A stretch of DNA of 64,000 bases from an uncultured Planctomycetia bacterium. GTDB taxonomy: Bacteria > Omnitrophota > Gorgyraeia > Duberdicusellales > Duberdicusellaceae. The notes under the pieces were generated by a model that saw only the letters and a program-made list of their open reading frames with translations, ran no database searches and was not told the DNA's origin. Location: NCBI GenBank assembly GCA_964634935.1, contig CAZWJT010000001.1, positions 288,949 through 352,948 of the forward strand. The letters run 5' to 3'. Below, one piece after another: positions 34,972 through 58,655 of this stretch (positions within the stretch are counted from its first letter, which is position 1; the number at the start of each line of letters is the position of its first letter). A program made the position numbers and the translations under genes.

Positions 34972-35048
34972 TGGTGGGCGGCGCAGGAGTCGAACCTGCG
35001 ACATCTTCCTTGTAAGGGAAGCGCTCTAGCCAGCTGAGCTAGCCGCCC
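34972..35048 (-). tRNA. tRNA-Val (anticodon UAC), with CCA encoded.
   Basis: Reverse complement GGGCGGCTAGCTCAGCTGG...CTTCC-CTTACAA-GGAAG...GGTTCGACTCCTGCGCCGCCCACCA folds as a cloverleaf. The anticodon loop CU-UAC-AA gives UAC. Confidence 0.85.
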
Positions 35049-43707: not shown

Positions 43708-44060
43708 TTAAAAAAAATCATCCGTATTGAAGTAAGAAATAAAAGTCCTCCAAAGAGCTTTTTCAGTATTGGCTCATTGATACGATGGGCTGCTTCCGCG
43801 CCAAGAAAACCTCCGATAAAAAAACCGGCACAAATAAAAAGCGCGATTGACACCTTCACATTCCCTTGGGCGTAGTATTTCAAAGCCGCAAGCAATCCAA
43901 TCGGGGGAATCATAGCGGCAAGCGTTGTTCCCTGAGCTTCATACTGAGTAAGATGTAAAAAATATACGAGTGCTGGTATTAAAATAATACCGCCTCCGAT
44001 CCCGAAAAGACCGCTTAAAATCCCCGCGGAAAAACCGATGACCAATTGCACCCACTGCAT
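43704..44060 (-). CDS. Half-size TauE/SafE (DUF81) family membrane protein (118 aa, about 4 TM).
   Basis: GILSGLFGIGGGIILIPAL, the signature of a single DUF81 repeat. Confidence 0.55.
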   Translation of the reverse strand: MQWVQLVIGFSAGILSGLFGIGGGIILIPALVYFLHLTQYEAQGTTLAAMIPPIGLLAALKYYAQGNVKVSIALFICAGFFIGGFLGAEAAHRINEPILKKLFGGLLFLTSIRMIFFK

Positions 44061-44091
44061 AAAATTCCTCCTTTATGCTCGTGTAGATCCT

Positions 44092-45255: not shown

Positions 45256-45285
45256 AACCTCCTTTTTCTCATCCTTATCAACAAT

Positions 45286-46053
45286 TCATGCAAGGTCACT
45301 GCTTTGAAAAACCGGCCCATCTTTACATGCGTAAAAAATACCTCTTTTGGTTTCTACCGCGCATGCCTTACACACGCCCAAACCGCATCCCATAAACTCC
45401 TCAAAAGAAACTTCACAGCGTACCTGAGGATAGAGTTTGATTCTTTCAGCCAGATTCTTCAGCATCGCAAGCGGGCCACAGCCATAAAGAAATGCCCCTT
45501 CTTGGAGCAATCCAGTGCAATCGCGGAATAGTAAATCTACGACTGAACCCCGGAATCCCAAAGAACCATCATCGGTGGCAACGCCCACTGCATAGCCAAG
45601 CTTCTGAAAATCACGGACGCAAAGTAACTCGCTCTTCTTCTTTGCACCCAGCAAAACAATTCGTTCTTTCATATCCTGCTTGCTGAGTTTCTGTGCAAGA
45701 AAGAGAAGCGGGGCAACCCCCATTCCTCCGGCAATAAATATTGAGGACTCCTTCTCCCTTCCAACGGAAAATCCATTCCCGAGAGGCCCAAGAACCTTTA
45801 AAGAATCTCCTTTCTTTTTCTGAGAAAGTACGGAGGTTCCCCTCCCTTTCGCCCGAAAAAGAATTTGCACTTTCTTCCCAAAAACACCGTGGATGCTGAA
45901 TGGCCGACGAAGCACAATTCTTTCGTCACAAAGATTTATGTGCAGAAACTGGCCGGGGAGAGCTTTGAAGGCAGATGAGAACCCAAAAGACAAAAGAAAA
46001 ACATCTGAGTTGACTTTTTGAATACTTTCAATTCTTACAAACTCATCCCGCAT
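45286..46053 (-). CDS. pyrK: Dihydroorotate dehydrogenase electron-transfer subunit. The start is set at MRDEFVRI to avoid overlap with mutM.
   Basis: FAD/NAD-binding motifs (RRPFSI, GGMGVAPL) and a C-terminal [2Fe-2S] Cys cluster (CGLGVCKAC...C). Confidence 0.7.
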   Translation of the reverse strand: MRDEFVRIESIQKVNSDVFLLSFGFSSAFKALPGQFLHINLCDERIVLRRPFSIHGVFGKKVQILFRAKGRGTSVLSQKKKGDSLKVLGPLGNGFSVGREKESSIFIAGGMGVAPLLFLAQKLSKQDMKERIVLLGAKKKSELLCVRDFQKLGYAVGVATDDGSLGFRGSVVDLLFRDCTGLLQEGAFLYGCGPLAMLKNLAERIKLYPQVRCEVSFEEFMGCGLGVCKACAVETKRGIFYACKDGPVFQSSDLA

Positions 46054-46061
46054 GCTCTTTG

Positions 46062-46862
46062 TTAGTTCTGACACCGCCCGCAGTAATATGTGCCGCGCCC
46101 TGAAAGGGTGATTCTCTGAATCGGCTGCCCGCAAAAAACACAGGGTTTTCCCTGACGGTCATACACCTGATGATAAGCGCTATATGCTCCCTTTTTCCCA
46201 GAGATCCGCACATAATCATCGACCGAAGAACCTCCTTGGGAAATGGCTTGTTTCAATACATCCTTTAGTATCCGGAAAAGCTTCTTCGATTCTGCTGGGG
46301 TTAACGATGAAGCGGCTCTGCGCGGATCAATTCCTGCACGGAAAAGTATCTCCGCAGCATAGAGATTGCCTATCCCGGCAAGAAATGTCTGGTCCATAAG
46401 CAATGGTTTTATCCTTGTCTTTTTCCCGCGTAATTTTCCGGAAAACTCCGCCGATGAAATATGAAAAGGCTCTGGCCCAAGTCTACGGATAAAAGGAAGG
46501 CTCTCCCAGGAAGAAACAAATCTCAATTCTCCAAAAAGCCGCTGGTCTTTAAAATCAAGCAAAGTCCCATCCGAGAAAAAGAAACCCACCCGGCTTCCCT
46601 CTCCATCTGAAGGATAGATAAGCTGACCGGTCATTTTTAAATGAACTGTCAGAAAACCCCTTTTCCCAAGCTCACAAATCAAAAGTTTCCCTCTGCGAAA
46701 AACTTTGGTTATCGTCGCATGCCGAAGGTGGCGGCAGAATTGCTTCAGGGAAGGTTGCCGAACAACCAGGCGGTTATATACGCAAACCCTGCGGATTGTT
46801 TTACCGCATAGAGCGCGCCGTAGCTCGCGTGTAACCGTTTCGACTTCAGGTAGTTCTGGCAT
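46062..46862 (-). CDS. mutM: Formamidopyrimidine-DNA glycosylase.
   Basis: MPELPEVETV catalytic N-terminus, H2TH region, and a C-terminal zinc finger CVFCG...CGRC. Confidence 0.85.
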   Translation of the reverse strand: MPELPEVETVTRELRRALCGKTIRRVCVYNRLVVRQPSLKQFCRHLRHATITKVFRRGKLLICELGKRGFLTVHLKMTGQLIYPSDGEGSRVGFFFSDGTLLDFKDQRLFGELRFVSSWESLPFIRRLGPEPFHISSAEFSGKLRGKKTRIKPLLMDQTFLAGIGNLYAAEILFRAGIDPRRAASSLTPAESKKLFRILKDVLKQAISQGGSSVDDYVRISGKKGAYSAYHQVYDRQGKPCVFCGQPIQRITLSGRGTYYCGRCQN

Positions 46863-46878
46863 CTGCGTTTACCTTCGG

Positions 46879-48384
46879 TTATCCTTCGGGAACATTGTGC
46901 CAAAGATAATATTTGCTTACCTTGCCTAAAAACTGCAACGGATATCGTCTATTATACTGTGAAATAATCACATACGATAGTGATTTATCAGGAATAAAAT
47001 CTGGCTGAAAGAAGTAGAGCGGCGTTGAAGTATCATAGAGAGAAAGATACCGCAAAACTGCCTTATCAATATAGAAAGCTTCATAAAAGACATTCTTCTC
47101 TTTTAAAAAATCGACAATTTGGCGTAACCCCTTGTGGTAACTGATCGCGGGTTGCAAAATAAAATTAGCAGACAAAAGAATCACCACCCAACCTAAGAAA
47201 ACCATCCAGAATAATTTCCTTGTTTCGGCTTTCCGCTTCAAGAACAAAAATAAACAGAAACACCCAACCATAAGAAAAGTAAGAAAATCATTCTGCCCGA
47301 ACAGCGACGAAGGACAGAAAAAGAAATAGATCCCTGCCCCTAAGAAAAGAAGCGAAAACAAAGCCAGGAGAAAAATAAAATAGTATTTGTGCCACCGGTA
47401 AAACCCGAGAAGTTCCATTGTCGCAAGCACCGAAACCGGGACGCTCAATACCAAGAGATACATAACAAGCTTTGATTTCACCAGGCTTAAAAAAATAAAC
47501 CCGGCAATAAGCCAGATAGAACAAAAACGCTCAAATGCCGAGTTTGTCCCTTGCCGGACTATCCGTATTAACCTGCCTAACGACAATACTCCCCAAGGGA
47601 AGAAACTCGGAACGAATACAAGAACGTAGAAAAAGAACGGCTGGGCGTGACTCGAAGGAGCAATGCCACGGGCAAGACTTTGCCGAAAAAGCATTTGCTG
47701 CGCGTAGTCTGGCTGGATAAACACAGAAACACTGAAAATCCATACACCGATGAGAAACAGTGCTGAAAAGTTGGCTATAAAAAAATAGGTGCAGTACTTT
47801 TTTTTGTTCGGTCCACTCAGAATAAAAAAAAGTTCGGTGACAAAAGGAATAAAAAAACCGAAAGCGCCCTTTGTAAAACATGCGAGAAAGCTCAAGATGC
47901 CGCTCGCGACACACAATCCGTATCTATCCTGCACTAAGGACTGATAAAAAAGAAAAAGACCAGCGGTGAGAAAAAATACAAACACAATGTCCATACGAAT
48001 TATTACGGTCATTGCATAAAAAATCAGCAAGGTAAGAAGAATGGCCGTGGCATACAGCGCGCGCTCTTCGGAACCAAACCGGCGCACGAATACATAGAGG
48101 GCAAACGCCATAAAAAAGGCAAAAGCAGTATTCACTGCGATAATCCACGGCAAACCCTTGATCCCCCAATGCGAAAAAAAAGAAATCATCCAGAAATAGA
48201 AAGGTGGTTTTTCGTAGTAATTTTTCCCGGCAAGGGTTGGAATAAAGATACTTGTGCTCGATTGGATACTCTGCGCGACGAGAATATCACGGGGTTCATC
48301 TGGAAGAAACAGGTCGCGGAAGAATGAAGCGGAACTGTAAAGCAAAAGGCAAAAAAACAACAGCAAGATAACCTTTTTTTTCAT
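46879..48384 (-). CDS. GT39/ArnT-like polyprenyl-phosphate-dependent glycosyltransferase (about 12-13 TM).
   Basis: 501 aa, highly hydrophobic. N-terminal DEPRD...KPPFYFW region typical of ArnT/PMT-fold enzymes. Confidence 0.55.
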   Translation of the reverse strand: MKKKVILLLFFCLLLYSSASFFRDLFLPDEPRDILVAQSIQSSTSIFIPTLAGKNYYEKPPFYFWMISFFSHWGIKGLPWIIAVNTAFAFFMAFALYVFVRRFGSEERALYATAILLTLLIFYAMTVIIRMDIVFVFFLTAGLFLFYQSLVQDRYGLCVASGILSFLACFTKGAFGFFIPFVTELFFILSGPNKKKYCTYFFIANFSALFLIGVWIFSVSVFIQPDYAQQMLFRQSLARGIAPSSHAQPFFFYVLVFVPSFFPWGVLSLGRLIRIVRQGTNSAFERFCSIWLIAGFIFLSLVKSKLVMYLLVLSVPVSVLATMELLGFYRWHKYYFIFLLALFSLLFLGAGIYFFFCPSSLFGQNDFLTFLMVGCFCLFLFLKRKAETRKLFWMVFLGWVVILLSANFILQPAISYHKGLRQIVDFLKEKNVFYEAFYIDKAVLRYLSLYDTSTPLYFFQPDFIPDKSLSYVIISQYNRRYPLQFLGKVSKYYLWHNVPEG

Positions 48385-48431
48385 AGACTAAAATGAGTCT
48401 CGCGGTTCTCCTTTTATTTTTTCGGACTTTC

Positions 48432-48725
48432 TTATCTGGTTGAACGCAACCGTGATTTATGATGAATAAAATAGAGATTCCGCGCGTAGATAAAGATTCC
48501 CAGTGATTGACCGATGATAAACACCGGATCGCGCCGATAAACTGAATAGATCAACAGGATGATTCCTCCCAGAATACTGAAAAGCCAGAATACCGGAGGA
48601 ATAGTACTTTCTTTTCTCTTTTCGCTGGCAATCCATTGGATGAAAAAACGCAGAAAAAAGAAAAATTGCCCCATAAGACCAAGCGATATCCAAAGTAACT
48701 CGCTAGTTTTCATCATTCCGCGCAA
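48432..48725 (-). CDS. Small membrane protein, GtrA-like / lipid-A-disaccharide-synthase N-terminal-domain-like.
   Basis: 97 aa with 3 TM. Positioned between a GT2 polyprenol-phosphate glycosyltransferase and a GT39 enzyme, as in GtrABC/ArnCT systems. Confidence 0.45.
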   Translation of the reverse strand: MRGMMKTSELLWISLGLMGQFFFFLRFFIQWIASEKRKESTIPPVFWLFSILGGIILLIYSVYRRDPVFIIGQSLGIFIYARNLYFIHHKSRLRSTR

Positions 48726-49461
48726 ACTCTATACGCATTATTCTCCTGGACAGCCAGAAAATCCCCACCAAGTCGAAAATTCCTTTACCAAGCCGGTTGG
48801 CAACACTGTATTTTGAATAGCCAAATTTCCGGGGTTGGTGCAGAACAGGCACCTGATGCACCGAATATCCCATTCGGCGTAACACATAAGGGAAAAAACG
48901 ATGGAAATTTGCAAAAAAGGGAAAAGAAAGAATACATTCTCGCCTGAAGCAACGGAGAGAGCATCCAACATCTTTTATTGAATCATTCAGAATTATCCTA
49001 CGGAAAAAATAAGCAATTCGCGAAGATAGAATACGCGTAAAACTATCTTCTCGCTTCTGGCGTATTCCGGTAACACAATCAAATTGTTTTGAAAAATCCA
49101 GAAGTTTTCCGATTTCTTCCGGAGGATTTTGCAAATCCGCATCTAACGTAATAACCCAAATACCCCTGGCACGAAGAAATCCAGCGCAGAGAGCAGCACT
49201 CTGCCCGGCGTGTTTTGCAAGAGAATAGGCCCGGGTATTGATAAATTCCTTTTCAAGGCTCTTCAATACTTCCAGGGAATTATCGGTGCTTGCGTCGTTT
49301 ATATAGAGAATTTCATACGTCTCTGCGCGGGCAGAGAAAAAAACAGCAATCCGCTGGTGAAGAATTTTTAATGAATCCTCTTCATTATATACAGGAATAA
49401 CTACGGAATATTCAGGAAAAGACTCCGGGGTAACTTCAGAATGTCGCTTCCATGCGTCCAT
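48703..49461 (-). CDS. Family-2 glycosyltransferase, polyprenol-phosphate sugar synthase type (ArnC/GtrB/DPM1-like).
   Basis: YSVVIPVYNEEDSL start, DASTD, and LDADLQNPPEEI (DxD) motifs. Confidence 0.7.
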   Translation of the reverse strand: MDAWKRHSEVTPESFPEYSVVIPVYNEEDSLKILHQRIAVFFSARAETYEILYINDASTDNSLEVLKSLEKEFINTRAYSLAKHAGQSAALCAGFLRARGIWVITLDADLQNPPEEIGKLLDFSKQFDCVTGIRQKREDSFTRILSSRIAYFFRRIILNDSIKDVGCSLRCFRRECILSFPFFANFHRFFPYVLRRMGYSVHQVPVLHQPRKFGYSKYSVANRLGKGIFDLVGIFWLSRRIMRIEFARNDEN

Positions 49462-49471
49462 AAAAAAGCGT

Positions 49472-52400
49472 CTACAAATTTCCCAGTGCTTTATAGTATT
49501 CCTGAATCGGCTGCACGCTTAATTCGGATTTCTCCAAAGCTTCAATCCCCATCACAGTTGCCTGCGCCCCGGAAAGCGTGGTAACACAGGGAATATTCTG
49601 GATTGTTGCCTCTGAGCGAATCCGCACTTCATCAAGACGGGGGATTCTTCCTGAAGGAGTATTGATGATCAAATGCACCGACTTATCTTTAATATAATCA
49701 AGGATGTTCGGCTGGCCTTGAGATATTTTCTTCAATTCGCTTACTTTGATACGATTCTTCGCAAGCACCTTAGCAGTTCCTTCGGTGGCAAGAATTTCAA
49801 AACCCATATCAATGAGCTTCTTTGCGATAAAAACGATACCCCGCTTATCCCGATCTTTCACGCTGATGAAAACACGACCGGACTTAGGAAGCATCTGGCT
49901 TGCAGCAATCTGGCTCTTTACATAAGCCTTACTAAAATCGAAATCCACCCCCATAACTTCCCCGGTTGATTTCATTTCTGGTCCGAGGATAATATCAACG
50001 CCCTTAAAGCGGTTAAACGGAAAAACTGACTCTTTGACGCTCGTATAGGAAGGAAGAATTTCTTTCACATACCCAAGCTCTTTTAAGCTCTTCCCGAGCA
50101 TGATCTTTGTAGCAATCTTTGCCAGCGGCTGTCCGATCGCTTTTGAGATAAACGGAACCGTCCGGGAGGCGCGAGGGTTAACTTCCAAAATAAAGAGCTC
50201 ATCGTTCTTCACGGCATATTGGATATTCATAAGACCAACGATTCGAAGTTCCTCAGCCAACGCGCAGGACGCTTTGCGAATCTGATTCAGCATATCATCC
50301 GAAAGGCTGAAGGTTGGCAAACACATCGCGCTATCGCCTGAATGAATTCCAGCTTCCTCGATGTGCTCTAAGATACCCCCGATCACGAACACAGCGCCAT
50401 CACCAAGCACATCCACATCCACTTCAACCGCGTCTTCCAAAAATTTATCAATCAGTATCGGCTGATTGTTTGAAACAAGGAGCGCTTCCTTAATATACTT
50501 TTCAAGGACGCTTTCATCATAGACAATTTCCATCGCCCTGCCACCTAGCACATAAGACGGCCGGACAAGCACCGGATACCCGATTTGACTGGCAATTTTC
50601 TTTGAATCATAAAAATTAGTCGCAGTCGCGTTTGGTGTCTGTTTCAAGTTTAACTTTTGCAGCAGCCGTTTAAACTTCTCCCTATCTTCAGCCCGGTCGA
50701 TTGAAGAAGCTTTTGTTCCTAAGATATGCACTCCCGCTTTTTCAAGACCTAAAGCGAGATTTAGGGGAGTTTGCCCTCCAAACTGCAAGATCACCCCGTA
50801 CGGTTTTTCTTTCTTGACGATATGCAGCACATCTTCAATAGTAATCGGTTCAAAATAAAGCTTATCGGAAATATCATAATCAGTTGATACGGTTTCGGGA
50901 TTACAGTTGACCATAATCACTTCAACTTGTTCTTCCCGAAGGGCAAAAGCAGCATGAACACAACAATAATCAAACTCTATTCCCTGGCCAATCCGATTGG
51001 GACCGCCGCCCAAAATCATAACTTTCTTCCGGGAAGACACCCTGCTCTCGTCTTCTTTCTCGTATGTTGAATAATAATACGGAGTATGGGCTTGAAATTC
51101 CGCTGCGCAGGTATCAACAAGTTTATAAGTTGCCTCCAGGCTGTATTTTTCACGCAAGGCAGTTATCTTATCTTCGCTGGTATGCAAAATATCCCCTAAA
51201 TACTTGTCGGAAAATCCCATTTCTTTTGCCTGGCAGAGCGTTTTCAAATCAAGCCCCCGGTTATTTTTCACCATTGTCTCAAAATCAACAAGCTCTTTAA
51301 TGTTTGATAAAAACCAGCGGTCAATTTTGGTGTATGAATATACTTCATCGATCGACATGCCCAGGCGAAACGCATCAGCCACATAAAATATCCTCCACGC
51401 ATTCGGTTTCATGATATTATTAATCACTTCTTCCTTTACCTCGGATGTCGCGTAGCTGTACCGCTTGTCGAATACAACTGATTCAAGGCCGGCTTTATTG
51501 ACCTCCAAACCGCGGATTCCTTTTTGAAGAGCTTCCTTAAATGTTCTCCCGATCGCCATTACTTCCCCGACTGACTTCATCGATGTTGTAAGTGTTGTAT
51601 CCGCACCGGGAAACTTCTCAAAAGCCCACCGGGGAATTTTCACGACGCAATAATCAATCGTCGGCTCGAATGAAGCCGGCGTCTCTTTGGTAATATCGTT
51701 TGGAATTTCATCAAGCGTGTAACCGACAGCGAGTTTTGCCGCAATCTTAGCGATAGGAAAACCTGTTGCCTTAGAAGCAAGCGCCGAAGAACGGGAAACA
51801 CGGGGATTCATTTCGATAATCACGATGCGGCCGTCATCGGGATTAACCGCGAATTGTACGTTCGAACCTCCGGTCTCTACTCCGATAGCGCGGATTGCCC
51901 GAATCGCAAGCTCACGCATCTTCTGGTATTCCTGATCAGTCAAGGTCTGCACGGGGGCAACCGTGATAGAGTCTCCGGTATGGACACCCATTGGATCAAG
52001 GTTCTCTATGGAACAAACGATCAGCGCATTATCATTCTTATCGCGCATGACTTCAAGCTCAAACTCTTTCCACCCAAGGAGCGACTCCTCAATAAGTATC
52101 TCGTGAATAATACTTTGCGAGATTCCCCAAACAACAATATCCTCAAATTCCTGCCGGTTGAAAGCAACTCCTCCGCCGGTGCCACCGAGAGTAAACGCTG
52201 GCCTCACCACGCACGGAAGCCCAATTTCATCGAGGTAGTTACGGGCCTCCTCAAGAGAGTACACTGTTTTTGAGCGTGGAAGCGCGATATTCGCCTTTTC
52301 CATCGCCTTCTTGAAAAGTTCTCTATCTTCAGCTTTGGCAATTGCCTGCTCATTCGCGCCAATCAATTCCACATGATACTTCTGAAAAATTCCTTGCCCA

Positions 52401-52708
52401 GCTGCTGCAAATGCGATATTTAATGCCGTCTGCCCCCCCAGAGTCGGTAACACCGCGTCCGGTTTTTCAACCGCAATAATCTTTTCCAGGGATTCCACGG
52501 TAATCGGCTCAATGTAAGTACGATCAGCGATTTCCGGATCAGTCATAATCGTTGCTGGATTAGAATTCAAAAGTATGATCTTATATCCTTCGTCACGCAA
52601 GGCTCGGCAGGCCTGAGTTCCTGAATAATCAAATTCGCAGGCCTGTGAGATAATAATCGGCCCGGAACCAATGATCAAAATACTCTTGATGTCTGTCCTC
52701 TTAGGCAT
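49472..52708 (-). CDS. carB: Carbamoyl-phosphate synthase large subunit.
   Basis: 1078 aa. Duplicated ATP-grasp halves ([21 protein letters not shown] / [20 protein letters not shown]) and a C-terminal MGS-like domain. Confidence 0.9.
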
Positions 52709-53840
52709 GATCGTACACCTTCTTGTCGTTTATGATGGTTTGTAATTGAGCAAAAATATGCCCGGCATCAAACGGTCCGGGGCCGGCTTCGGGATGAAAC
52801 TGCACGCTGAATACCGGCAATCGCTTATGCCGCATACCTTCGGGGGTATGGTCATACAAATTGACATGAGTCATTTCTAGTTCTTCCGGAAGACTCGCCA
52901 TATCGACACAAAAATTGTGATTTTGGGCTGTAATATCTATCTTCCCGCTCCTGAGATCTTTAACCGGATGGTTTCCTCCGTGATGGCCAAATTTGAGCTT
53001 ATAGGTTTTTCCTCCAAAGGCCAGACCTAAAATCTGATGACCAAGACAGATGCCAAAAAGCACCACATTCAATTCTTTCGCCTGAAGTTTCTGGATAAAC
53101 TCCCGGGCAAGCCGGATCGCATTTTCCACTGCTGAAGGATCCCCCGGTCCATTGGAAAAAATAATTGCGCGGGGGTTAAAACGCATAATCTCGTTCAGGG
53201 AACTTGCCGGCGGAACAACCCAGACAGTTTTAAAAAAACGTTTCAGATGATGTAAAATACTGTGTTTTACCCCGCAATCAACAACAACCGCGGTGTGATT
53301 ACCTGCCGATTCAGACGGAAACCGCGATGATTGCCATTGGTACGCTTTTTGAACGGTAACTTCCTGGACAAGATCACGGCCAAGAATGGAAGGAAACTGC
53401 TTCAATTTTGCAAGCAGTGAATCCTGATGAAAATCACCAGTTGAAATAATCCCTTTCATCGATCCTGTCGTGCGCAACCGGATAGTCAACGCACGGGTGT
53501 CAATACCCTGAATAGCCGGTATATTGTTCTCCCCAAGATATTCCCGAAGCGATTTCACTCCACGCCAATTGGAAAAGATACGGCTTTCTTCTTTTACAAT
53601 GAATCCATCGGCGAAAATTTTCCGGGATTCTATATCATCCGGATTAACCCCATAGTTCCCGATGAGAGGATACGTCATACACACAATCTGGCCTCTATAA
53701 GAGGGATCGGTCAGAATTTCCTGGTATCCGGTCATGGATGTGTTGAAAACAACTTCACCTATAGATTCAACGTCCGCCCCGAAGGAGAAACCTTCTTGGA
53801 AAAACCCGTCTTCAAGGAGTAAGACTGCTTTTTTCTGCAT
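52701..53840 (-). CDS. carA: Carbamoyl-phosphate synthase small subunit. The start is set at [12 protein letters not shown].
   Basis: GATase triad region (GICLGHQ, HH). 8-nt overlap with carB. The longer ORF-track N-terminus would run into the tRNA-Arg. Confidence 0.85.
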
Positions 53841-53858
53841 AGCGTTATTTCCTTTTGT

Positions 53859-53933
53859 TGGCGCCCCCTGGAAGAATCGAACTTCCATCACAGGCTTCGG
53901 AGACCTGTGCTTTATCCATTAAGCTAAGGGGGC
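53859..53933 (-). tRNA. tRNA-Arg (anticodon CCG), with CCA encoded.
   Basis: Reverse complement GCCCCCTTAGCTTAATGGATAAAGCACAGGT-CTCCGAA-GCCTG TGAT GGAAGTTCGATTCTTCC AGGGGGC G CCA folds as a cloverleaf. Anticodon CCG with U33 and A37. Confidence 0.8.
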
Positions 53934-53965
53934 AATGTTTATTATTCCTGTATATGGCGATAAAT

Positions 53966-54451
53966 CTAGAGGCAAAGAATCCCCTGTAAGGTTTCGTCAA
54001 GATATTTTTGATCCCGGACTTTATCCCCGCGTACCCCACATATAGTAAGAATATTTGCCGATTGCGCGTAGAGTATTTGTTCGAGTTCACGCTGGGCCTT
54101 CTGAATGCCTCCTCCTCCATGCGTAAGAACGCAAGATATTTTTTTGTGAGCAAGCCCCTCTGCCCGGGTTAAAAAACTCCGTAAAGCCGGGGTAATCGTA
54201 AATGCCCAGACCGGAGAAGAAAAAACCACATAATCGAAACCAACGAGATTACAAAAAGATTCATCTTGCAGAGAAAGAATCTTCTTCCGTGCAGCCTGCA
54301 GACACTGGGTAAAAAAATTTCTTGTTTCCGGTTTCGGATGCAAGCGATACAGAATAACCTCATGTCCAAGTTTTGTAAGCGCCTCTTTGATGTGTTCGTT
54401 TACTTTCTGCGTGTTCCCCGAGAAAGAGTAAAACACTAAAGCGATCTTCAT
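53966..54451 (-). CDS. Flavodoxin-like protein.
   Basis: MKIALVFYSFSGNTQKV FMN-binding N-terminus. 161 aa. Confidence 0.6.
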   Translation of the reverse strand: MKIALVFYSFSGNTQKVNEHIKEALTKLGHEVILYRLHPKPETRNFFTQCLQAARKKILSLQDESFCNLVGFDYVVFSSPVWAFTITPALRSFLTRAEGLAHKKISCVLTHGGGGIQKAQRELEQILYAQSANILTICGVRGDKVRDQKYLDETLQGILCL

Positions 54452-54465
54452 TGTCCTCCCCTATC

Positions 54466-55698
54466 TTAAAAAAGACTGAATTGCTTTTCTTTCTCCGGCT
54501 CTTTCCCAAATACCTCAATAGACCCATATTCACCATCATAACCAGCCAGCGCGCGTATCTTTTTCTGGCGCACCCGAAGAATTCCCTCGGCTATCTTCAA
54601 AGAAGTCTTTTGCTTCAACTCTTCCTCGGTCGCTTCGATCAAAAGCTGGAATTCGGAGTTTTTTGCAGATACGATATGCCTGTACTCCCCTAAAACTGCT
54701 TTTGAGCTCTTGGCTAATCCTTTGGCCTCAGCGATAATCTCATCGAGCGGAACTGCGTTGCGATAAGGGATGGAATTTTCCGGGATAAACCCCTCTGCCC
54801 TGTCCGCAAGTTCATCCACTCTGCTCAGAACCCCCACCGTGATTTTCTTACCGCATTTGGGACACAGGCCTTTATTTTTCTTCGTTTCCTCCGGATGCAA
54901 CCGCGTATGACAAAGCCTGTGTCCATCGTAGTGATATTTGCCTTCTTCAGGAAAAAATTCAATGGTATAAAGAAACTTCTTCCTGTCTTTTTGCTCAAGC
55001 ACCTTCTTGATTTCCCAATAGTTCAATTCGCAATCAAAAACATTTGCTTCCCGGCCTATCCGAGCAGGCGAATGCGAATCTGAATTCGAGATCAAACTGA
55101 ACCTATCTAATTGCGAAAGTCTCCAGTTCATAAGAGGATCCGAAGACAATCCTGTTTCAAGTGCGGTAAGATGCTCGGTGGCATCTCCGAAAGCATCTTC
55201 GAGAGCATTAAATCCGGAATTTGAACCAAACACTGAGAACCAGGGAGTCCAAATATGCGCTGGAATAATCATGATATCCCGGGAAATTCTCAGCATCTCT
55301 TCGGCAAGGACGCGACAACTGATTCCGAGTATCGGCCTGCCATCGGAAGCAATATTCCCGTAGCTTGAAAGCTTCTGGTTGATTGCATCAACGATTTCGA
55401 AAGACGGCGCGAGCAACACCGTGTGCACTCTGTAGCTTTTGCCATCTTGGGAGAAAATCGTTGAAATCTCCGCAGAAAGGATAAAAGAAACACCCTCGTG
55501 TTCGTATAAGCCCGTATTGGAAACAGCCGTGAGATTCCGCTTCAAATCTTGTAACCACAGGTAATGAGTAAAATCTCCCGTGCCCATAAGCCGGATCCCC
55601 TTAAGGCGTGCCCACTCAGCCAAATGAGGAATATCCATATCGCGGGAAGTAGCCCGCGAATATTTTGAATGAATATGAAAATCCGCGACAAACTTCAT
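54466..55698 (-). CDS. PHP-domain nuclease of the EndoQ-like family (TIGR00375-type), with a C-terminal zinc finger.
   Basis: FHIHSKYSRATS...GTGDFTH PHP metal motifs, as in archaeal Endonuclease Q. CPKCGKK zinc ribbon near the C-terminus. Confidence 0.55.
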   Translation of the reverse strand: MKFVADFHIHSKYSRATSRDMDIPHLAEWARLKGIRLMGTGDFTHYLWLQDLKRNLTAVSNTGLYEHEGVSFILSAEISTIFSQDGKSYRVHTVLLAPSFEIVDAINQKLSSYGNIASDGRPILGISCRVLAEEMLRISRDIMIIPAHIWTPWFSVFGSNSGFNALEDAFGDATEHLTALETGLSSDPLMNWRLSQLDRFSLISNSDSHSPARIGREANVFDCELNYWEIKKVLEQKDRKKFLYTIEFFPEEGKYHYDGHRLCHTRLHPEETKKNKGLCPKCGKKITVGVLSRVDELADRAEGFIPENSIPYRNAVPLDEIIAEAKGLAKSSKAVLGEYRHIVSAKNSEFQLLIEATEEELKQKTSLKIAEGILRVRQKKIRALAGYDGEYGSIEVFGKEPEKEKQFSLF

Positions 55699-56975
55699 AG
55701 TTTTTGCGGAAAATCGAGTACAACGCCTTTATGAATCGTGTGTACAACACACCCCTGCATCGTTTCCCCCAAAAAGGGGGTATTTTTAGATTTGGAGACA
55801 ATGCTCTCCAGAGACACTGGCCATTTTTTTTCAAGATCAACAATACAGAGATCGGCGACATATCCCTCTTGAATATCGCCTTTCTTTTCAAGGCCGAGAA
55901 TTTGGGCAGGTTTGAGCGAGAGCAATCTCGCGATATCTTCAAGCGCTAAAGCATTTTCCCGAACAAGCCGCAAAGTAAGCGGTAAAGCAAATTCAAGTCC
56001 GATAAAACCAAACGCGGCTTCGTATAAATCCACCTCTTTTTCTAAATAAGTATGCGGCGCGTGATCCGTAGTGATGCAATCAATTGTTCCATCTTTCAGC
56101 GCGACACGCAATGCCTCCATATCTTCTTTAGTGCCGAGGGGAGGATTGACTTTATAACGGGAAGAAAAACTCGATTGGAAGACATCGAGGTTCAGCGAGA
56201 AGTAATGAGGACAAGTTTCGCAGGTAACAAGAATTCCTTCTTTTTTCGCCTGACGGATAATCTCAAGCGAGCGTTTACTGCTTACATGAGCGATATGAAT
56301 TCTAGAATGAAGGTATCGGGCAATTTCGATATCACGAAGCACAAAGACTGTTTCTGCGATTTCAGGATACGCCGGAATCCCTTTCTGGGCGGTGAGGTAT
56401 GATTCTCTGACGATACCATCTTGGGCAAGTTCCCGATCCTCACAATGGGAAATAAGCAAGAGGTTAAACAACTTGGCGTATTCGAAAGCCCGCCGCAAGA
56501 TATAGGAATTCTTCACGCTTGCGCCGTCGTCGCTTACTGCGATACACCCTGCTTGCTTCAAACCTCCAAATTCGGAGAGAATTTCTCCTTTCCGTTCTTT
56601 CGTGATCGAACCAACCGGAATAACATCAACAATGCCCAGCCGTTCTGATTCGTCTTTAATCCATTTGGCAATCTCGTATTCATCAATTGCCGGCTGAGTG
56701 TTCGGCATGCACATAATCGTGGTGAAACCACCCTTGGCCGCGGCGTAAGAACCGCTCTCGATTGTTTCTTCGTCTTCCCGGCCGGGAATCCGCAGGTGAG
56801 TATGCATATCGATAAAACCCGCGAAGAGATATTTTCCATCTGCCTCTAATACCTTATCCGCGTTTCGTTCAAGCGATGGAGCGATCTGAACGATAACCCC
56901 CTGTTCAATAAAAACATCCGCCTTGGTAATAGAATCGGCCCGGACTAAGTGTGCGTTTTTGATCAATAAACTCAT
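55695..56975 (-). CDS. pyrC: Dihydroorotase.
   Basis: DMHTHLRIPG metal-binding motif, carboxylated-Lys region, DHAPH. Confidence 0.8.
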   Translation of the reverse strand: MSLLIKNAHLVRADSITKADVFIEQGVIVQIAPSLERNADKVLEADGKYLFAGFIDMHTHLRIPGREDEETIESGSYAAAKGGFTTIMCMPNTQPAIDEYEIAKWIKDESERLGIVDVIPVGSITKERKGEILSEFGGLKQAGCIAVSDDGASVKNSYILRRAFEYAKLFNLLLISHCEDRELAQDGIVRESYLTAQKGIPAYPEIAETVFVLRDIEIARYLHSRIHIAHVSSKRSLEIIRQAKKEGILVTCETCPHYFSLNLDVFQSSFSSRYKVNPPLGTKEDMEALRVALKDGTIDCITTDHAPHTYLEKEVDLYEAAFGFIGLEFALPLTLRLVRENALALEDIARLLSLKPAQILGLEKKGDIQEGYVADLCIVDLEKKWPVSLESIVSKSKNTPFLGETMQGCVVHTIHKGVVLDFPQKL

Positions 56976-56979
56976 AGCA

Positions 56980-57945
56980 TCACAATTGCTTTGGTTGGGT
57001 GACAGCGAAATGTTGCTTCTCTTTCACCAGATAAATAACAGCCATCCGTACCGCAAGGCCGTTGGTAACCTGCTCAAGGATCAGAGGAAATACCCGCTCT
57101 TTCAGGGCAGAAGCAATATCAATATCCCAGTTCACTGGACCAGGATGCATTACCAATGTTTTCTCTTTCAGAAGCTTCGCCTTTTCTTGCGAGAGCGAGA
57201 AAAATTCCCGATACTCGCGAACCGAAGGAAAAAAATGGCTTTTGAAACGCTCATTTTGGATTCTGAGCATAATCACAACGTCTGCCCCTTTCAGCGCTTC
57301 TTCCATATGATAGGTTACCTTGACCGGTAGTGTCTCGAAATATTTCGGGATGAGTGTTGGAGGAGCAGAAACCCAAACCTCCGAACCGCACTTGGAAAAT
57401 CCCCAAATGTTTGAACGGGCGACCCGCGAATGATAGATATCCCCGACAATCGCGACTTTAAGCCCGCTCAATGTCCCCAAACGCTCTTGCACCGTAAACA
57501 TATCCAGCAAAGCCTGGGTAGGATGTTCGTTTTCGCCGTCTCCAGCATTAATCACCGAAGCATTCGTATGTTCTGACAGATACACCGCAGAGCCAGAATT
57601 CGTATGACGCACAACGAAAACATCAACCGAGTATGCCTCAAGGTTTTTTAGGGTGTCCAGAATTGTCTCTCCCTTACTGAGACTGCTGATTGCCGGAGAA
57701 AAATTAAGAACATCGGCACTTAACCGTTTTGCCGCGAGTTCAAATGAGGTACGAGTCCGTGTTGAAGGTTCAAAAAAAAGATTAACGACTGTCTTGCCGC
57801 GGAGAGCAGGAACTTTCTTAATCCGGCGCTCGGAAACTTCTTTGAATGTTTTTGAAGTCTGGAGAATAGTTTCTATTTCTTCCCGGGTTAAATCGGATAA
57901 CCCGAACAAGTGGTTGCGTGTCCATCGCATCTTTTTCCCTGGCAT
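56980..57945 (-). CDS. pyrB: Aspartate carbamoyltransferase catalytic subunit.
   Basis: STRTR carbamoyl-phosphate motif and HPGP(VNWD) motif. Confidence 0.85.
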   Translation of the reverse strand: MPGKKMRWTRNHLFGLSDLTREEIETILQTSKTFKEVSERRIKKVPALRGKTVVNLFFEPSTRTRTSFELAAKRLSADVLNFSPAISSLSKGETILDTLKNLEAYSVDVFVVRHTNSGSAVYLSEHTNASVINAGDGENEHPTQALLDMFTVQERLGTLSGLKVAIVGDIYHSRVARSNIWGFSKCGSEVWVSAPPTLIPKYFETLPVKVTYHMEEALKGADVVIMLRIQNERFKSHFFPSVREYREFFSLSQEKAKLLKEKTLVMHPGPVNWDIDIASALKERVFPLILEQVTNGLAVRMAVIYLVKEKQHFAVTQPKQL

Positions 57946-57956
57946 ATAAACTCCGT

Positions 57957-58502
57957 CTACAACTCTTCTAAAAGCACGACTTCATCTTTCCCATCAAGCT
58001 CAAAAACGCGGGCCTCAACATGCTCTTTCTCGGATGTCGGGATATTTTTACCGACAAAATCCGCACGGATAGGTAGTTCCCTGTGCCCTCGGTCTACGAG
58101 AACGGCAAGCTGTATTTTTTTAGGCCTCCCAAAATCCATGATCTCATCAAGCGCGCAGCGGACAGTCCTTCCGGTAAAAAGCACGTCGTCTACGATTACG
58201 ATCGTTTTATTGGTAATATCAAAATCGATTGCTGTTTCTCCCGCCACCGGGAAAGAATCCACCAGGGTTAAATCATCCCGATAGAACGTAATGTCTAGAA
58301 CTCCCAAGGGAATATCCCCCTTGCCATTTTCATCGATAATATTTTTAATCCGTTGGGCAAGGAATACCCCGCGGCGCTGAATTCCAACAAGCGCAAGATC
58401 AACTGAATCGTGGTTTTTCTCTAAAATCTCAAACGAAAGCCTTTTGAGAATTTTAGCAATCTCCTCGGAACCTAAAATGACCGATTTTTCCTTATAATTC
58501 AT
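57957..58502 (-). CDS. pyrR: Bifunctional pyrimidine operon regulator / uracil phosphoribosyltransferase PyrR. The start is set at MNYKEK.
   Basis: PRTase motif VIVDDVLFTGRT. A PyrR-type RNA attenuator lies immediately upstream. The ORF-track N-terminal extension would run through the terminator. Confidence 0.8.
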   Translation of the reverse strand: MNYKEKSVILGSEEIAKILKRLSFEILEKNHDSVDLALVGIQRRGVFLAQRIKNIIDENGKGDIPLGVLDITFYRDDLTLVDSFPVAGETAIDFDITNKTIVIVDDVLFTGRTVRCALDEIMDFGRPKKIQLAVLVDRGHRELPIRADFVGKNIPTSEKEHVEARVFELDGKDEVVLLEEL

Positions 58503-58521
58503 GGTTTTTTGCGGGCAAGAT

Positions 58522-58549
58522 AAAAAAAATCCCACCGGGTTACGGTGGG
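58522..58549 (-). terminator. Intrinsic terminator/attenuator hairpin in the pyrR leader. On the minus strand: CCCACCG-UAAC-CCGGUGGG followed by AUUUUUUUU.
   Basis: Plus-strand 58531-58549 is cccaccgggttacggtggg, preceded by an 8-A run at 58522-58529. Located 20 nt upstream of the pyrR ATG. Confidence 0.6.
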
Positions 58550-58593
58550 TACATAAGAAATTCTTGGTATTTTCTGTCTCATGCTTTTCCTTT

Positions 58594-58609
58594 CCAGCCT
58601 CTCAGGACC
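58594..58609 (-). promoter_or_regulatory. PyrR protein-binding loop in the pyr leader RNA: 5'-GGUCCUGAGAGGCUGG-3'.
   Basis: Matches the conserved UCCnGAGAGGCU core of PyrR binding loops as I recall it. Sits between the promoter and the terminator. Confidence 0.55.
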
Positions 58610-58627
58610 GGGTTAAAGGTTAGAGTA

Positions 58628-58655
58628 AGTATACTCGTCTTTTCTTTTCTGTCAA
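58628..58655 (-). promoter_or_regulatory. Sigma70 promoter of the pyr operon. On the minus strand: TTGACA, 16-nt spacer, TATACT.
   Basis: Read in the reverse complement of 58621-58660, about 20 nt upstream of the PyrR binding loop. Confidence 0.5.

Follow-up and report, generated by a model that had tools for sequence, protein, structure and literature searches.

An Endonuclease Q homologue, a flavodoxin-fold protein and a tRNA-Arg gene embedded in the pyrimidine operon of Candidatus Omnitrophota

Why does a gene for a putative DNA repair nuclease lie in the middle of an operon for pyrimidine biosynthesis, next to a flavodoxin-like gene and a tRNA gene? This question is raised by a stretch of 64,000 nucleotides of Candidatus Omnitrophota DNA (the window), in which a sequence-only reading had placed an Endonuclease Q (EndoQ)-like PHP nuclease, a flavodoxin-like gene and a tRNA-Arg(CCG) between pyrC and carA. 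All three elements were found there on the minus strand, with endoQ at positions 54466 to 55698 (410 aa), the gene of a flavodoxin-fold FMN-binding protein at 53966 to 54451 (161 aa) and the tRNA-Arg(CCG) at 53859 to 53933. The genes around them make up a Bacillus-type pyrimidine operon (pyrR-pyrB-pyrC-carA-carB-...-pyrK-pyrD-pyrF), and the three-part module between pyrC and carA is conserved.

The operon, which like the module is encoded on the minus strand, begins with pyrR (57957 to 58502) for a bifunctional regulator and uracil phosphoribosyltransferase (NF003549, 233.5 bits, cut-off 138), followed by pyrB for aspartate carbamoyltransferase (56980 to 57945; NF002032, 394.7 bits, cut-off 263) and pyrC for dihydroorotase (55695 to 56975; TIGR00857, 393.8 bits, cut-off 279). 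Downstream of the module, carA (52701 to 53843; TIGR01368, 467 bits) and carB (49472 to 52708; CPSase domains) encode the small and large subunits of carbamoyl-phosphate synthase. Each of these five identities is supported by NCBIfam and Pfam profiles. The listed GTG open reading frame of carA (start 53891) would run into the tRNA-Arg. As the match to TIGR01368 sets in only at residue 22 of this frame and a protein of 379 aa was predicted by the gene caller, we took the ATG at 53843 as the start of carA. The pyr array continues in a same-strand string from 42111 to 46862, for which Pfam assigned fpg (46062 to 46862), pyrK (45286 to 46134), a GT2 gene (44092 to 45255), a TauE fragment (43704 to 44060), pyrD (42796 to 43707) and pyrF (42111 to 42818), and this order from fpg to pyrF is also found in relatives. 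From pyrR through pyrB, pyrC, endoQ, the flavodoxin gene, the tRNA and carA to carB, the intergenic distances are 11, 4, -4, 14, 32, 15 and -8 nt. The overlap of 4 nt, which had been read correctly from the sequence, arises because the ATG of the nuclease gene (55698 to 55696) shares an ATGA with the TGA of pyrC. A terminator scan detected no terminator-like site between the genes from pyrR to carB, and inside the operon neither a promoter nor a terminator was detectable. Since a Logan contig from an independent assembly of the same organism has an identical arrangement, the layout is not an assembly artefact.

We then asked whether the nuclease belongs to the EndoQ family. The motifs HIHSKYSRATS, GTGD and CPKCGKK are all present in the 410-aa open reading frame, and a phmmer search of the PDB returned EndoQ of Pyrococcus furiosus (PfuEndoQ, 5zb8) with an E-value of 7e-57, residues 5-396 aligning to residues 5-382; only EndoQ chains were matched in this search and no chain of any other protein. 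The AlphaFold2 model of the nuclease (pLDDT 87.7, pTM 0.88) superimposed in Foldseek on 5zb8 and 7k30 over about 400 columns with TM scores of 0.84-0.89, whereas other PHP proteins reached a query TM score of at most 0.38. By sequence and by fold, the protein is thus far closer to EndoQ than to the histidinol-phosphatase or PolX-type PHP families, a better fit to which would have spoken against the original assignment. A search with TIGR00375 revealed homology (187.1 bits, E 6e-55, over the full model, positions 2-374), but the score lies under the cut-off of 326.6 bits; as judged from its sequence, the nuclease is a homologue rather than an equivalog for this model and represents a distinct bacterial subfamily.

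The catalytic residues are retained throughout. The metal ligands of PfuEndoQ (His8, His10, Glu76, His84, His139 and Asp193, plus His195), which together with the roles of these residues are described in the literature (PMC5961232; further residue roles in PMC8307549), correspond to H8, H10, E77, H92, H148 and D207, plus H209, and are invariant in 42 close homologues and near-invariant in 153. When the lesion-binding pocket of PfuEndoQ (His139, Thr142, Trp144, Glu167, Leu168, Gly169, Leu170, Ser171, Asn191 and Asp193) was compared, T151, W153, E181, G183, L184, S185 and N205 were found to be kept, and the sole change is that of L168, which provides a main-chain contact in PfuEndoQ (PMC5961232, PMC8307549), to T182. 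The zinc site differs as well, as the four cysteines of PfuEndoQ (Cys249, Cys252, Cys268 and Cys271) are matched by H260, C263, C279 and C282; a His-Cys3 site can bind zinc, and this one may do so. Histidine is the first zinc ligand in 150 of the 153 sampled homologues, and both this change and that to threonine in the pocket are common to about 150 of the 153. The protein ends in KQFSLF behind a disordered tail (pLDDT <50), Q406 and F410 being invariant and L409 at least 90% conserved among close homologues. An end of the form Qxx[LIMFV][FLMY] is present in 102 of 159 homologues, and among 1924 proteins encoded nearby, 7 show the stricter form of the pattern. That bacterial EndoQ can carry a clamp motif has been noted before (PMC4858679).

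Compared with the EndoQ proteins of P. furiosus and Thermococcus kodakarensis (5ZB8, 7K30-33) and of Bacillus pumilus and B. subtilis, the window protein shares about 33% identity, the three-domain fold (PHP, zinc and helical domains), identical metal ligands, a pocket that is alike except at L168 and a clamp-binding peptide at the extreme C-terminus following a disordered linker. In contrast to the PCNA-interacting PIP box of the archaeal enzymes, the tail QFSLF is of the beta-clamp type. Close homologues carry the NCBI name 'endonuclease Q family protein'. On the strength of sequence and structural model, we regard the nuclease as a true EndoQ family member. Homology predicts that it flips out a deoxyuridine, deoxyinosine or abasic residue and cuts the phosphodiester bond 5' of the lesion, with zinc held in the PHP domain serving catalysis and the C-terminal QFSLF probably tethering the enzyme to the beta sliding clamp.

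The second element, whose start codon is preceded at a distance of 5 nt by a GGGGAGG ribosome-binding site, proved to be flavodoxin-like as proposed, with Pfam scores of 39.8 bits for Flavodoxin_2 (cut-off 27) and 37.3 bits for FMN_red (cut-off 24). Its YSFSGNT loop is invariant and matches the (S/T)x(S/T)GxT loop that binds the FMN phosphate. The predicted model (pLDDT 94.7) resembles FMN-binding flavoproteins with a TM score of about 0.7, the nearest structures being the uncharacterised flavoproteins 4ici and 4j8p, besides WrbA and SsuE; sequence matches in the PDB were weak (best E 0.004). An assignment as a flavodoxin proper, WrbA, NrdI or HemG was attempted, but the fold matches are generic and no specific subfamily could be named. 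A homologue search returned 11 proteins only, with at most 47% identity, at least some of which are encoded on endoQ-bearing contigs. The protein is a fast-evolving FMN protein specific to this clade.

How might the module be expressed? The best promoter in a 10.5-kb scan lies upstream of pyrR (58628 to 58655, minus strand; TTGACA, 16 nt, TATACT) and matches the consensus at 11 of 12 positions, and equivalent TTGACA promoters upstream of pyrR in relatives score 10-12 of 12. It is followed by a predicted PyrR-binding attenuator (58520 to 58623, minus strand), which combines a match to RF00515 with a leader terminator. This element surfaced only when Rfam was searched by E-value (44.7 bits, E 5.8e-4 in 5.2 kb), as the score is under the gathering score of 54; at gathering thresholds, the Rfam matches were confined to tRNAs, two in the window and others in seven related loci. 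The predicted PyrR-binding hairpin (CCUUUAA...GGUCCUGAGAGGCUGG...AAGG, 58619 to 58589) precedes a terminator hairpin at 58549 to 58531 with a U8 run behind it, both on the minus strand. Since a strict regular expression for the PyrR box matched two loci only, we inspected the leaders directly and found the PyrR core GGUCCUGAGAGGCU with its hairpin, including compensatory changes in the stem, in 11 leaders, and the hairpin together with a terminator in 10 related ones. No classical antiterminator was identified in the pyr leader. It does contain an open reading frame of 27 codons (MRQKIPRISYVPTVTRWDFFYLARKKP, 58499 to 58582, minus strand), which begins 6 nt past the AAGG of the PyrR hairpin, crosses the terminator and ends in a TGA that overlaps the ATG of pyrR. 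In 9 of 11 leaders, no stop codon interrupts the ATG-bearing frame across the terminator, whereas this is true of 3 of the 22 other frames.

In Bacillus subtilis, the pyr operon has the order pyrR-pyrP-pyrB-pyrC-pyrAA-pyrAB-pyrK-pyrD-pyrF-pyrE and is controlled by PyrR-mediated attenuation. The window resembles it in the order of the pyr genes, in pyrR standing first and in a predicted PyrR hairpin followed by an intrinsic terminator. It differs in lacking pyrP, in having a single detected PyrR site and in being interrupted three times by non-pyr genes (the EndoQ module; GT2, PMT and fpg; GT2 and TauE), and the short open reading frame that crosses the terminator into pyrR is absent from the Bacillus mechanism. 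The pyrBI operon of E. coli is governed by leader-peptide attenuation, with a leader open reading frame running into the terminator as in the window, and in Mycobacterium PyrR represses translation; by analogy only with these two systems, ribosomes in the leader could act on the terminator region and PyrR binding could occlude a ribosome-binding site. From the sequence, the 3' arm AAGG of the PyrR hairpin could serve as the Shine-Dalgarno sequence of the leader open reading frame. To our knowledge, a PyrR hairpin doubling as a Shine-Dalgarno element, a terminator inside the open reading frame and an ATGA overlap with pyrR have not been described in combination. Since the sole recognisable promoter is located upstream of pyrR, endoQ would be transcribed through the PyrR-binding attenuator. 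Synthesis of EndoQ should then follow that of the pyrimidine enzymes, increasing when UMP or UTP is low, and its translation would be coupled to that of pyrC via the ATGA overlap.

The third element, the tRNA-Arg(CCG), was recovered as a cloverleaf by ARAGORN, encodes its own CCA and matches the Rfam tRNA model over its full length with 68.9 bits, on the strand that had been proposed. Its 5' end lies 32 nt after the flavodoxin stop codon and its 3' end 15 nt before the carA ATG, the spacer from CCA to ATG containing AAGGAA. The same tRNA is located downstream of endoQ on the same strand in 12 related loci. Given the ATGA coupling, the tiny spacers and the finding that in 13 loci no promoter could be recognised ahead of the tRNA, polycistronic co-transcription with processing of the tRNA, as well as co-translation of endoQ with pyrC, are reasonable inferences. 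Most likely, the tRNA-Arg is transcribed along with its neighbours and then released, RNase P cutting at the 5' end and an endonuclease, followed by trimming, forming the 3' end. Its release would leave one mRNA that extends from pyrR to the flavodoxin gene and another that begins with a leader of 15 nt and encodes carAB. Mixed tRNA-mRNA operons are familiar from E. coli (thrU-tyrU-glyT-thrT-tufB and metY-rimP-nusA-infB) and from the 'tRNA punctuation' model of mitochondria. The E. coli examples likewise have a tRNA on the same strand a few nt from coding genes, and by analogy release by RNase P and 3' processing may be expected here too. Unlike in E. coli, the tRNA of the window is internal, between two biosynthetic blocks rather than at the head of an operon, and its transcription would hang on a metabolite-attenuated promoter.

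To learn how far this arrangement extends, we compared related loci. About 20 loci of Omnitrophota share the string pyrR-pyrB-pyrC-endoQ-(flavodoxin)-tRNA-Arg-(carA)-carB-...-fpg-pyrK-pyrD-pyrF, their EndoQ identities being 53-70%; as the layout recurs across Omnitrophota, it is real and inherited. Outside Omnitrophota, pyr genes are found near endoQ in about 4 of about 140 loci, where a rough estimate of the chance expectation is also about 4. The linkages observed there (a divergent pyrRBC in L045, pyrD in L048, pyrD-pyrF in L119 and a weak pyrB in L113) were therefore at chance level and rejected as independent support. According to the literature, EndoQ is an enzyme of archaea that has only a few homologues in bacteria (PMC5961232, PMC6202378). 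The EndoQ papers that we consulted, among them PMC5961232, PMC8307549 and PMC4858679, mention no pyr-operon context, and our literature search found no paper that describes endoQ within a pyr operon or from Omnitrophota.

Taken together, we consider it likely from the sequence that a genuine repair nuclease is co-expressed with pyrimidine synthesis under PyrR control and that the tRNA is cut from the transcript. Other explanations have to be weighed against this reading. The protein might be a PHP phosphoesterase for another substrate, such as nucleotides or RNA, that was recruited to nucleotide metabolism and is no endonuclease for DNA lesions. The adjoining genes do belong to nucleotide metabolism, Pfam hmmscan gave no PHP or any other family for the nuclease (a weak precomputed match to PF27218, MJ0043_C, is on record), the TIGR00375 score is under the cut-off and both L168T and C249H set the protein apart from PfuEndoQ. 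We nevertheless hold this to be very unlikely in view of the full three-domain EndoQ architecture, the retention of all catalytic and lesion-pocket residues, including the equivalents H148, G183 and S185 that are said to exclude T and A (PMC8307549), the conserved DNA-clamp motif and the UvrD-type DNA helicases to which many homologues are fused or adjacent. Even less credible is a mobile or defence island that integrated at the tRNA gene, or an anti-phage nuclease directed against uracil-containing phage DNA. tRNA genes are common integration sites, and one is present here; endoQ also adjoins a tRNA-Arg(CCG) in Patescibacteria-like loci, and a review has raised a possible antiviral role of Bacillus EndoQ (PMC8307549). 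Against such an origin, genes for an integrase or a transposase are absent, no repeat of the tRNA 3' end exists and the flanks contain short repeats at chance level only, the GC content is flat (0.44-0.47), the module lies 5' and not 3' of the tRNA and its position is fixed across the phylum. Neither the nuclease nor the flavoprotein was matched to a defence system by PADLOC, and tblastn against 50,697 phage records gave no match. Since flanking repeats and a GC anomaly are both lacking, the module is not a recent insertion, and the island explanation is largely refuted.

Two further alternatives leave the nature of the nuclease untouched and are harder to dismiss. The locus might comprise two transcription units, the tRNA-Arg(CCG) having its own promoter, non-canonical or concealed within the 3' part of the preceding gene, in which case the tRNA together with carAB and possibly further genes would escape PyrR control and the tRNA would stand at a boundary between units instead of being a site of processing. 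Among the arginine codons, CGG is used most often (107 of 322 in 15 genes), hence the tRNA needs robust expression and an attenuated promoter would be awkward for it; a weak TAGATT-16-AATAAT element stops 6 nt short of its 5' end, AT-rich -10-like hexamers lie 3-7 nt upstream in several relatives, and, as carbamoyl phosphate is needed for arginine synthesis too, freeing carAB from pyrimidine control would be sensible. A non-canonical or intragenic promoter may serve the tRNA-Arg. The promoter scan found none upstream of it, however, and over the 150 nt upstream in 13 loci the best sigma-70-like scores (7-9 of 12) were the same as in coding-sequence controls (mean 7.5), none of them conserved above these controls, whereas pyr leaders score 10-12 of 12 and the other tRNA of the window, tRNA-Val, has TTGATT-17-TATACT in its own spacer. 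No terminator separates the tRNA from the upstream genes, and in three loci (L003, L087 and L089) it starts only 3-9 nt after the endoQ stop codon. Two separate units therefore appear rather unlikely to us. Better placed, at somewhat below even chances, is neutral hitchhiking, by which a real repair gene and its accessories would sit in a long same-strand array of a compact genome in a position ancestral to Omnitrophota, with no regulatory or metabolic meaning. This explanation accepts the gene identities; all that it contests is whether the linkage has a meaning. Between pyrR and pyrF there are unrelated genes as well, namely glycosyltransferases (GT2), LAB_N, a PMT-like protein (PMT_2) and a TauE fragment, joined in relatives by PabB and YjbQ; the content of the module varies, the flavoprotein gene directly following endoQ in 6 of 20 related loci, a Mut7-C or SLOG/LOG gene occurring in some and carA often being absent. 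In L002, endoQ keeps its downstream neighbours and pyrRBC is lost, linkage to pyr genes is at chance level in other phyla, and the tRNA-Val of the window is likewise wedged between same-strand genes. On the other side, the junction of pyrC and endoQ is the most constant of the array, pyrC being directly upstream or separated by one Mut7-C gene in 19 of 20 loci despite pyrC identities of 40-58%, many loci have start-stop overlaps or gaps of 2-5 nt, and the inserted genes show a thematic bias in that they include a second base-repair gene, fpg, and a dCTP deaminase.

The suggestion that a uracil/hypoxanthine-DNA nuclease is coupled to pyrimidine metabolism thus stands in so far as the linkage is conserved in Omnitrophota; it is not specific, since glycosyltransferases, TauE, PabB and YjbQ share the string, and it falls to chance level in other phyla. 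With unrelated genes in the string, the embedding is weak evidence for functional coupling, and an adaptive value or functional purpose of the linkage is unproven. The sequence comparisons establish the identities of the genes, the key residues, the spacing, the leader with its predicted attenuator and the conservation in relatives; that the enzyme is active, that the genes are transcribed together, that the tRNA is processed and that the linkage is of selective benefit are inferences from them. A joint reading, which we regard as improbable as a whole, would have uracil and hypoxanthine repair of Omnitrophota DNA wired to the pyrimidine pool through a hybrid PyrR attenuator, with the tRNA-Arg as punctuation. 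In such a scheme, a clamp-tethered, pyrC-coupled EndoQ would be induced by the PyrR signal of de novo synthesis; PyrR binding would block translation of the leader open reading frame, which would otherwise melt the terminator; the capacity for uracil excision would rise just as the supply of dTTP and dCTP drops, and the internal tRNA-Arg(CCG) would uncouple the fate of the carAB mRNA from that of the upstream half of the operon.

For the family, these results mean that EndoQ is a standard gene, complete with clamp motif, in a whole uncultivated phylum and in many others, and many of the endoQ genes are still annotated 'DNA helicase UvrD'. If the linkage were mere inherited gene order, the value of the finding would be limited to better annotation. 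In Omnitrophota, endoQ is built into a putatively PyrR-controlled pyrimidine operon alongside a tRNA, and the leader, in which a predicted PyrR site is combined with an open reading frame that crosses the terminator, may represent a novel variation of textbook attenuation. If co-regulation holds true, the operon would clearly exemplify how an enzyme of DNA base repair can be linked to the sensing of nucleotide pools, and it would offer a testable way into the handling of uracil in DNA by small, streamlined genomes.

On the minus strand of the window, the ORF table together with NCBIfam and Pfam places pyrR (57957-58502, from its ATG), pyrB (56980-57945) and pyrC (55695-56975) ahead of the gene for the 410-aa Endonuclease Q (EndoQ) homologue (endoQ, 54466-55698; ORF table). 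It is followed on the same strand by a gene for a 161-aa flavodoxin-fold protein (53966-54451; ORF table and Pfam), a tRNA-Arg(CCG) (53859-53933; ARAGORN, and 68.9 bits with the Rfam tRNA model), carA (52701-53843, from its ATG; ORF table, NCBIfam/Pfam) and carB (49472-52708; ORF table and precomputed Pfam CPSase domains). The three elements that the sequence-only reading had described between pyrC and carA, including the strand of the tRNA, are confirmed in every detail by these sources and by the identical arrangement in an independent assembly. The reported 4-nt overlap can be read directly in the window, where the endoQ ATG and the pyrC TGA share ATGA, an overlap that would couple endoQ to pyrC in translation. 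The spacer between endoQ and the flavodoxin-fold gene measures 14 nt and contains the ribosome-binding site GGGGAGG; 32 nt lie between that gene and the tRNA, and 15 nt, with AAGGAA within, between the tRNA CCA and the carA ATG. After carB, a same-strand array (42111-49461, minus strand) continues with GT2, LAB_N, PMT_2, fpg (46062-46862), pyrK, GT2, TauE (a 118-aa fragment), pyrD and pyrF, after which V-type ATPase genes come. The fpg gene is a second base-repair gene among the pyr genes, with which unrelated genes are interleaved too. The window thus has the pyr gene order of the Bacillus-type operon, but with insertions at three points.

The motifs HIHSKYSRATS, GTGD and CPKCGKK, on which the assignment to an EndoQ-like PHP nuclease had been based, are all present in the 410-aa ORF. 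A PDB sequence search returned Pyrococcus furiosus EndoQ (PfuEndoQ) entries as the sole matches, and these over the full length (E 7e-57, residues 5-396 versus 5-382). An AlphaFold model from an alignment of 42 homologues (pLDDT 87.7, pTM 0.88) superimposes on 5ZB8 and 7K30 with TM 0.84-0.89, while the next best PHP proteins reach TMq ≤0.38. When mapped onto the catalytic-zinc ligands and lesion-pocket residues of PfuEndoQ (Miyazono et al., PMC5961232), all metal-site residues (H8, H10, E77, H92, H148, D207 and H209) are kept, as are T151, W153, E181, G183, L184 and N205 of the lesion pocket, in which L168 to Thr (T182) is the only change. S185, the equivalent of Ser171, is invariant in the 42-homologue alignment; Ser171, with His139 and Gly169, is said to keep out thymine and adenine (PMC8307549). 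At the zinc-site positions H260/C263/C279/C282, the first ligand is His260 and not Cys, resulting in a His-Cys3 site versus the Cys4 site of PfuEndoQ. The TIGR00375 model, which had been proposed for checking the assignment, does match the protein, but at 187 bits, under its 326.6-bit cut-off. Since the His zinc ligand and the Thr pocket residue are the rule in about 150-151 of the 153 homologues collected, the window protein is, judged by its sequence, a member of a distinct, mostly bacterial His-Cys3 subfamily and no degenerate copy. It falls within the EndoQ family broadly defined, outside the TIGR00375 equivalog.

Beyond a disordered tail, the window EndoQ ends in KQFSLF, which fits the bacterial beta-clamp-binding consensus. 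A C-terminal Qxx[LIMFV][FLMY] is found in 102 of 159 EndoQ homologues; as a background, 7 of 1924 neighbouring proteins match a stricter clamp pattern. Such motifs have been noted earlier in bacterial EndoQ homologues by Shiraishi et al., and the archaeal PIP box binds PCNA (PMC4858679). The bacterial homologues carry a QLxLF-type beta-clamp motif at the C-terminus, and homologues from archaeon-labelled MAGs (loci L039, L043, L046, L142, L155 and L158) have PIP-box-like ends (QKGLGEFC, QEGLNKFF, QSSLDSFV). The tail of EndoQ appears to be matched to the clamp of its host. By sequence, the window protein is intact in its active site, its lesion pocket and its clamp motif. A better fit to the histidinol-phosphatase or PolX PHP families, the alternative identity named in the sequence-only reading, is ruled out by the EndoQ-only PDB matches and the low TMq to other PHP proteins, and the conserved residues and the tail likewise argue for EndoQ.

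The neighbouring 161-aa protein exceeds the cut-offs of two Pfam families, Flavodoxin_2 and FMN_red, and carries an invariant FMN-phosphate loop, YSFSGNT, which bears out its description as flavodoxin-like. Its model is confident (pLDDT 94.7), with uncharacterised Bacteroides flavoproteins, WrbA and SsuE as the nearest structures (TM ~0.7); no subfamily could be assigned from NCBIfam and PDB sequence and fold comparisons. Detectable relatives are few (≤47% identity), and among the loci listed the gene lies directly 3′ of endoQ in six related ones.

The tRNA-Arg(CCG) is canonical and no minor tRNA, since CGG is the top arginine codon (107 of 322 in 15 window genes). Its 3′ CCA is encoded (53859-53861), which is the case in none of 18 related copies compared. 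Sigma-70-like sites 5′ of the tRNA reach at best 7-9 of 12 positions at 13 loci; random coding windows average 7.5, the same as these upstream regions, and pyr leaders score 10-12. Between pyrR and carB, a scan found no intergenic terminator-like site and an Rfam search no further PyrR site. The simplest reading would be one transcript from the pyr promoter, out of which the tRNA is cut, its support being negative evidence only. Because CGG use is heavy, an additional promoter for the tRNA may exist. A tRNA-Val(TAC) (34972-35048, minus strand) also lies between same-strand ORFs and, unlike tRNA-Arg, is preceded by a 53-nt spacer with the promoter-like element TTGATT-17-TATACT. E. coli offers established examples of mixed tRNA-mRNA operons (tufB, metY).

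The operon is probably a pyr operon with PyrR attenuation. Upstream of pyrR, the promoter TTGACA-16-TATACT (58655-58628, minus strand), the best in a 10.5-kb scan, and a terminator (hairpin plus U8 run; 58549-58522, minus strand; terminator scan) enclose a match to the Rfam PyrR RNA model (44.7 bits, E 5.8e-4, under the gathering score), which contains the core GGUCCUGAGAGGCU. Across ten related leaders the same promoter recurs, along with a hairpin and a terminator, and there are compensatory inner-stem changes such as CCCGG/CUGG versus GUUAG/CUAAU. Among the leaders compared (window, L004-L008, L028 and L087-L091), most also hold a short ORF, in the window 27 codons long (58582-58499, minus strand). 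Nine of 11 leaders have, 4-9 nt past the PyrR-hairpin AAGG arm, an ATG whose ORF of 16-55 codons crosses the terminator without a stop; of the other frames, only 3 of 22 do. In at least five leaders (window, L005, L006, L008 and L088) the TGA of this ORF overlaps the pyrR ATG as ATGA. As the ATG adjoins the AAGG arm, the ORF crosses the terminator and the TGA overlaps pyrR, these sequences suggest that bound PyrR prevents translation of the leader, which permits termination. These leaders may contain a PyrR-plus-leader-peptide attenuator, which would be a hybrid of the mechanisms known from Bacillus, from E. coli pyrBI and from Mycobacterium.

Among the matches listed, the closest EndoQ homologues come from Candidatus Omnitrophota MAGs (64-70% identity); some of them bear the label 'endonuclease Q family protein', others the erroneous one 'DNA helicase UvrD'. 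We compared 80 endoQ-bearing loci from species-representative genomes and 80 from metagenomes, scored with the window proteins and ARAGORN, and clustered the neighbouring ORFs of all 160. Among the loci listed, pyrC lies immediately 5′ of endoQ, or with only a Mut7-C-domain gene between, in 19 of 20 Omnitrophota-clade loci (identity across these loci 53-70% for EndoQ, 40-58% for pyrC), and 12 of the 20 have tRNA-Arg(CCG) downstream in the same orientation, at times 3-9 nt past the endoQ stop. The consensus order, with variable genes in brackets, is rsmI, pyrR, pyrB, pyrC, [Mut7-C], endoQ, [flavodoxin], tRNA-Arg, [SLOG/LOG-like], [carA], carB, [dcd], [YjbQ], fpg, [PabB], pyrK, [TauE], pyrD, pyrF. 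The window agrees with it, and the layout is conserved across the phylum. The window shows neither repeats flanking the module (endoQ, the flavodoxin-fold gene and the tRNA) nor an integrase gene or a shift in composition there; the module is old, and a recent insertion is ruled out.

The Mut7-C gene (PIN-like nuclease plus zinc ribbon, ~150 aa) is found in L083 (9535-9981), L006, L084-L086 and L092; L002 keeps a 48-aa remnant and the window none. Many relatives lack carA beside carB and have a 150-160-aa SLOG/LOG-like gene there and a dCTP deaminase gene after carB (L002, L008, L083, L087). Contigs L004 (labelled Methanosarcinales archaeon) and L007 (labelled Planctomycetia) carry the Omnitrophota-type pyrR-pyrB-pyrC-endoQ order (EndoQ identity 59-64%) and are probably mis-binned.

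Other phyla have different genes beside endoQ: a UvrD-type helicase, either as a fusion or as the next gene, a HIT protein, or leuS. Among the loci listed, 31 proteins have a C-terminal UvrD-type helicase fused (ORFs of ~1000-1160 aa in L017, L022, L045, L056, L060, L071 and about 25 other loci; hosts include Myxococcota, Planctomycetota and Fibrobacterota), and eight loci (L136 and L037 among them) have a separate UvrD-like gene 3′ of endoQ. These fusions probably explain the helicase mislabel of the stand-alone Omnitrophota proteins in NCBI. Seven loci (L012, L018, L019, L023, L099, L109, L125), including WOR-3 and Cloacimonadota MAGs, have a HIT-family (histidine triad) gene, another nucleotide-related neighbour, directly 3′ of endoQ in the same orientation. 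Of the 79 tRNAs in the 160 loci, 17 are tRNA-Arg(CCG); within 700 nt of endoQ, the share is 14 of 24. Patescibacteria-like loci without a pyr operon also have this tRNA, in the same orientation and just 5′ of endoQ (L014 9902-9974, L119 3987-4059, L104 5530-5602, L103 7039-7111, L011 7640-7712, L015 7848-7920). As this tRNA and a SLOG/LOG-like gene (Pfam LDcluster4) recur near endoQ in both lineages, the gene orders suggest an old endoQ/tRNA-Arg/SLOG neighbourhood.

In function, EndoQ held on the beta clamp would nick DNA 5′ of dU, dI or AP sites, and its synthesis would track that of the pyrimidine enzymes, rising when UMP/UTP is low. Cleavage by RNase P and 3′ processing would free tRNA-Arg, and carAB would then have its own mRNA with a leader of 15 nt. 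Low pyrimidine pools promote uracil misincorporation, and a rationale for the linkage can be offered on this ground, together with dcd and fpg in the same array. Adaptive coupling of EndoQ to pyrimidine synthesis is nevertheless unproven, though possible, and gene order by inheritance is a serious rival, since glycosyltransferases, TauE, PabB and YjbQ share the array, the module content varies among loci, and the endoQ neighbours differ in other phyla (UvrD-type helicase, HIT, leuS), where pyr neighbours occur in ~4 of ~140 non-Omnitrophota loci listed, by our estimate about chance.

The finding combines known kinds, namely the EndoQ family and, probably, a PyrR-attenuated pyr operon and a mixed tRNA-mRNA operon. 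We found no mention of endoQ inside a pyr operon in literature searches or in the EndoQ papers (PMC5961232, PMC8307549 and PMC4858679 among them), which describe bacterial EndoQ as rare. In contrast, the homologue search gave at least 8000 proteins, and the at least 80 plus at least 80 loci span many phyla.
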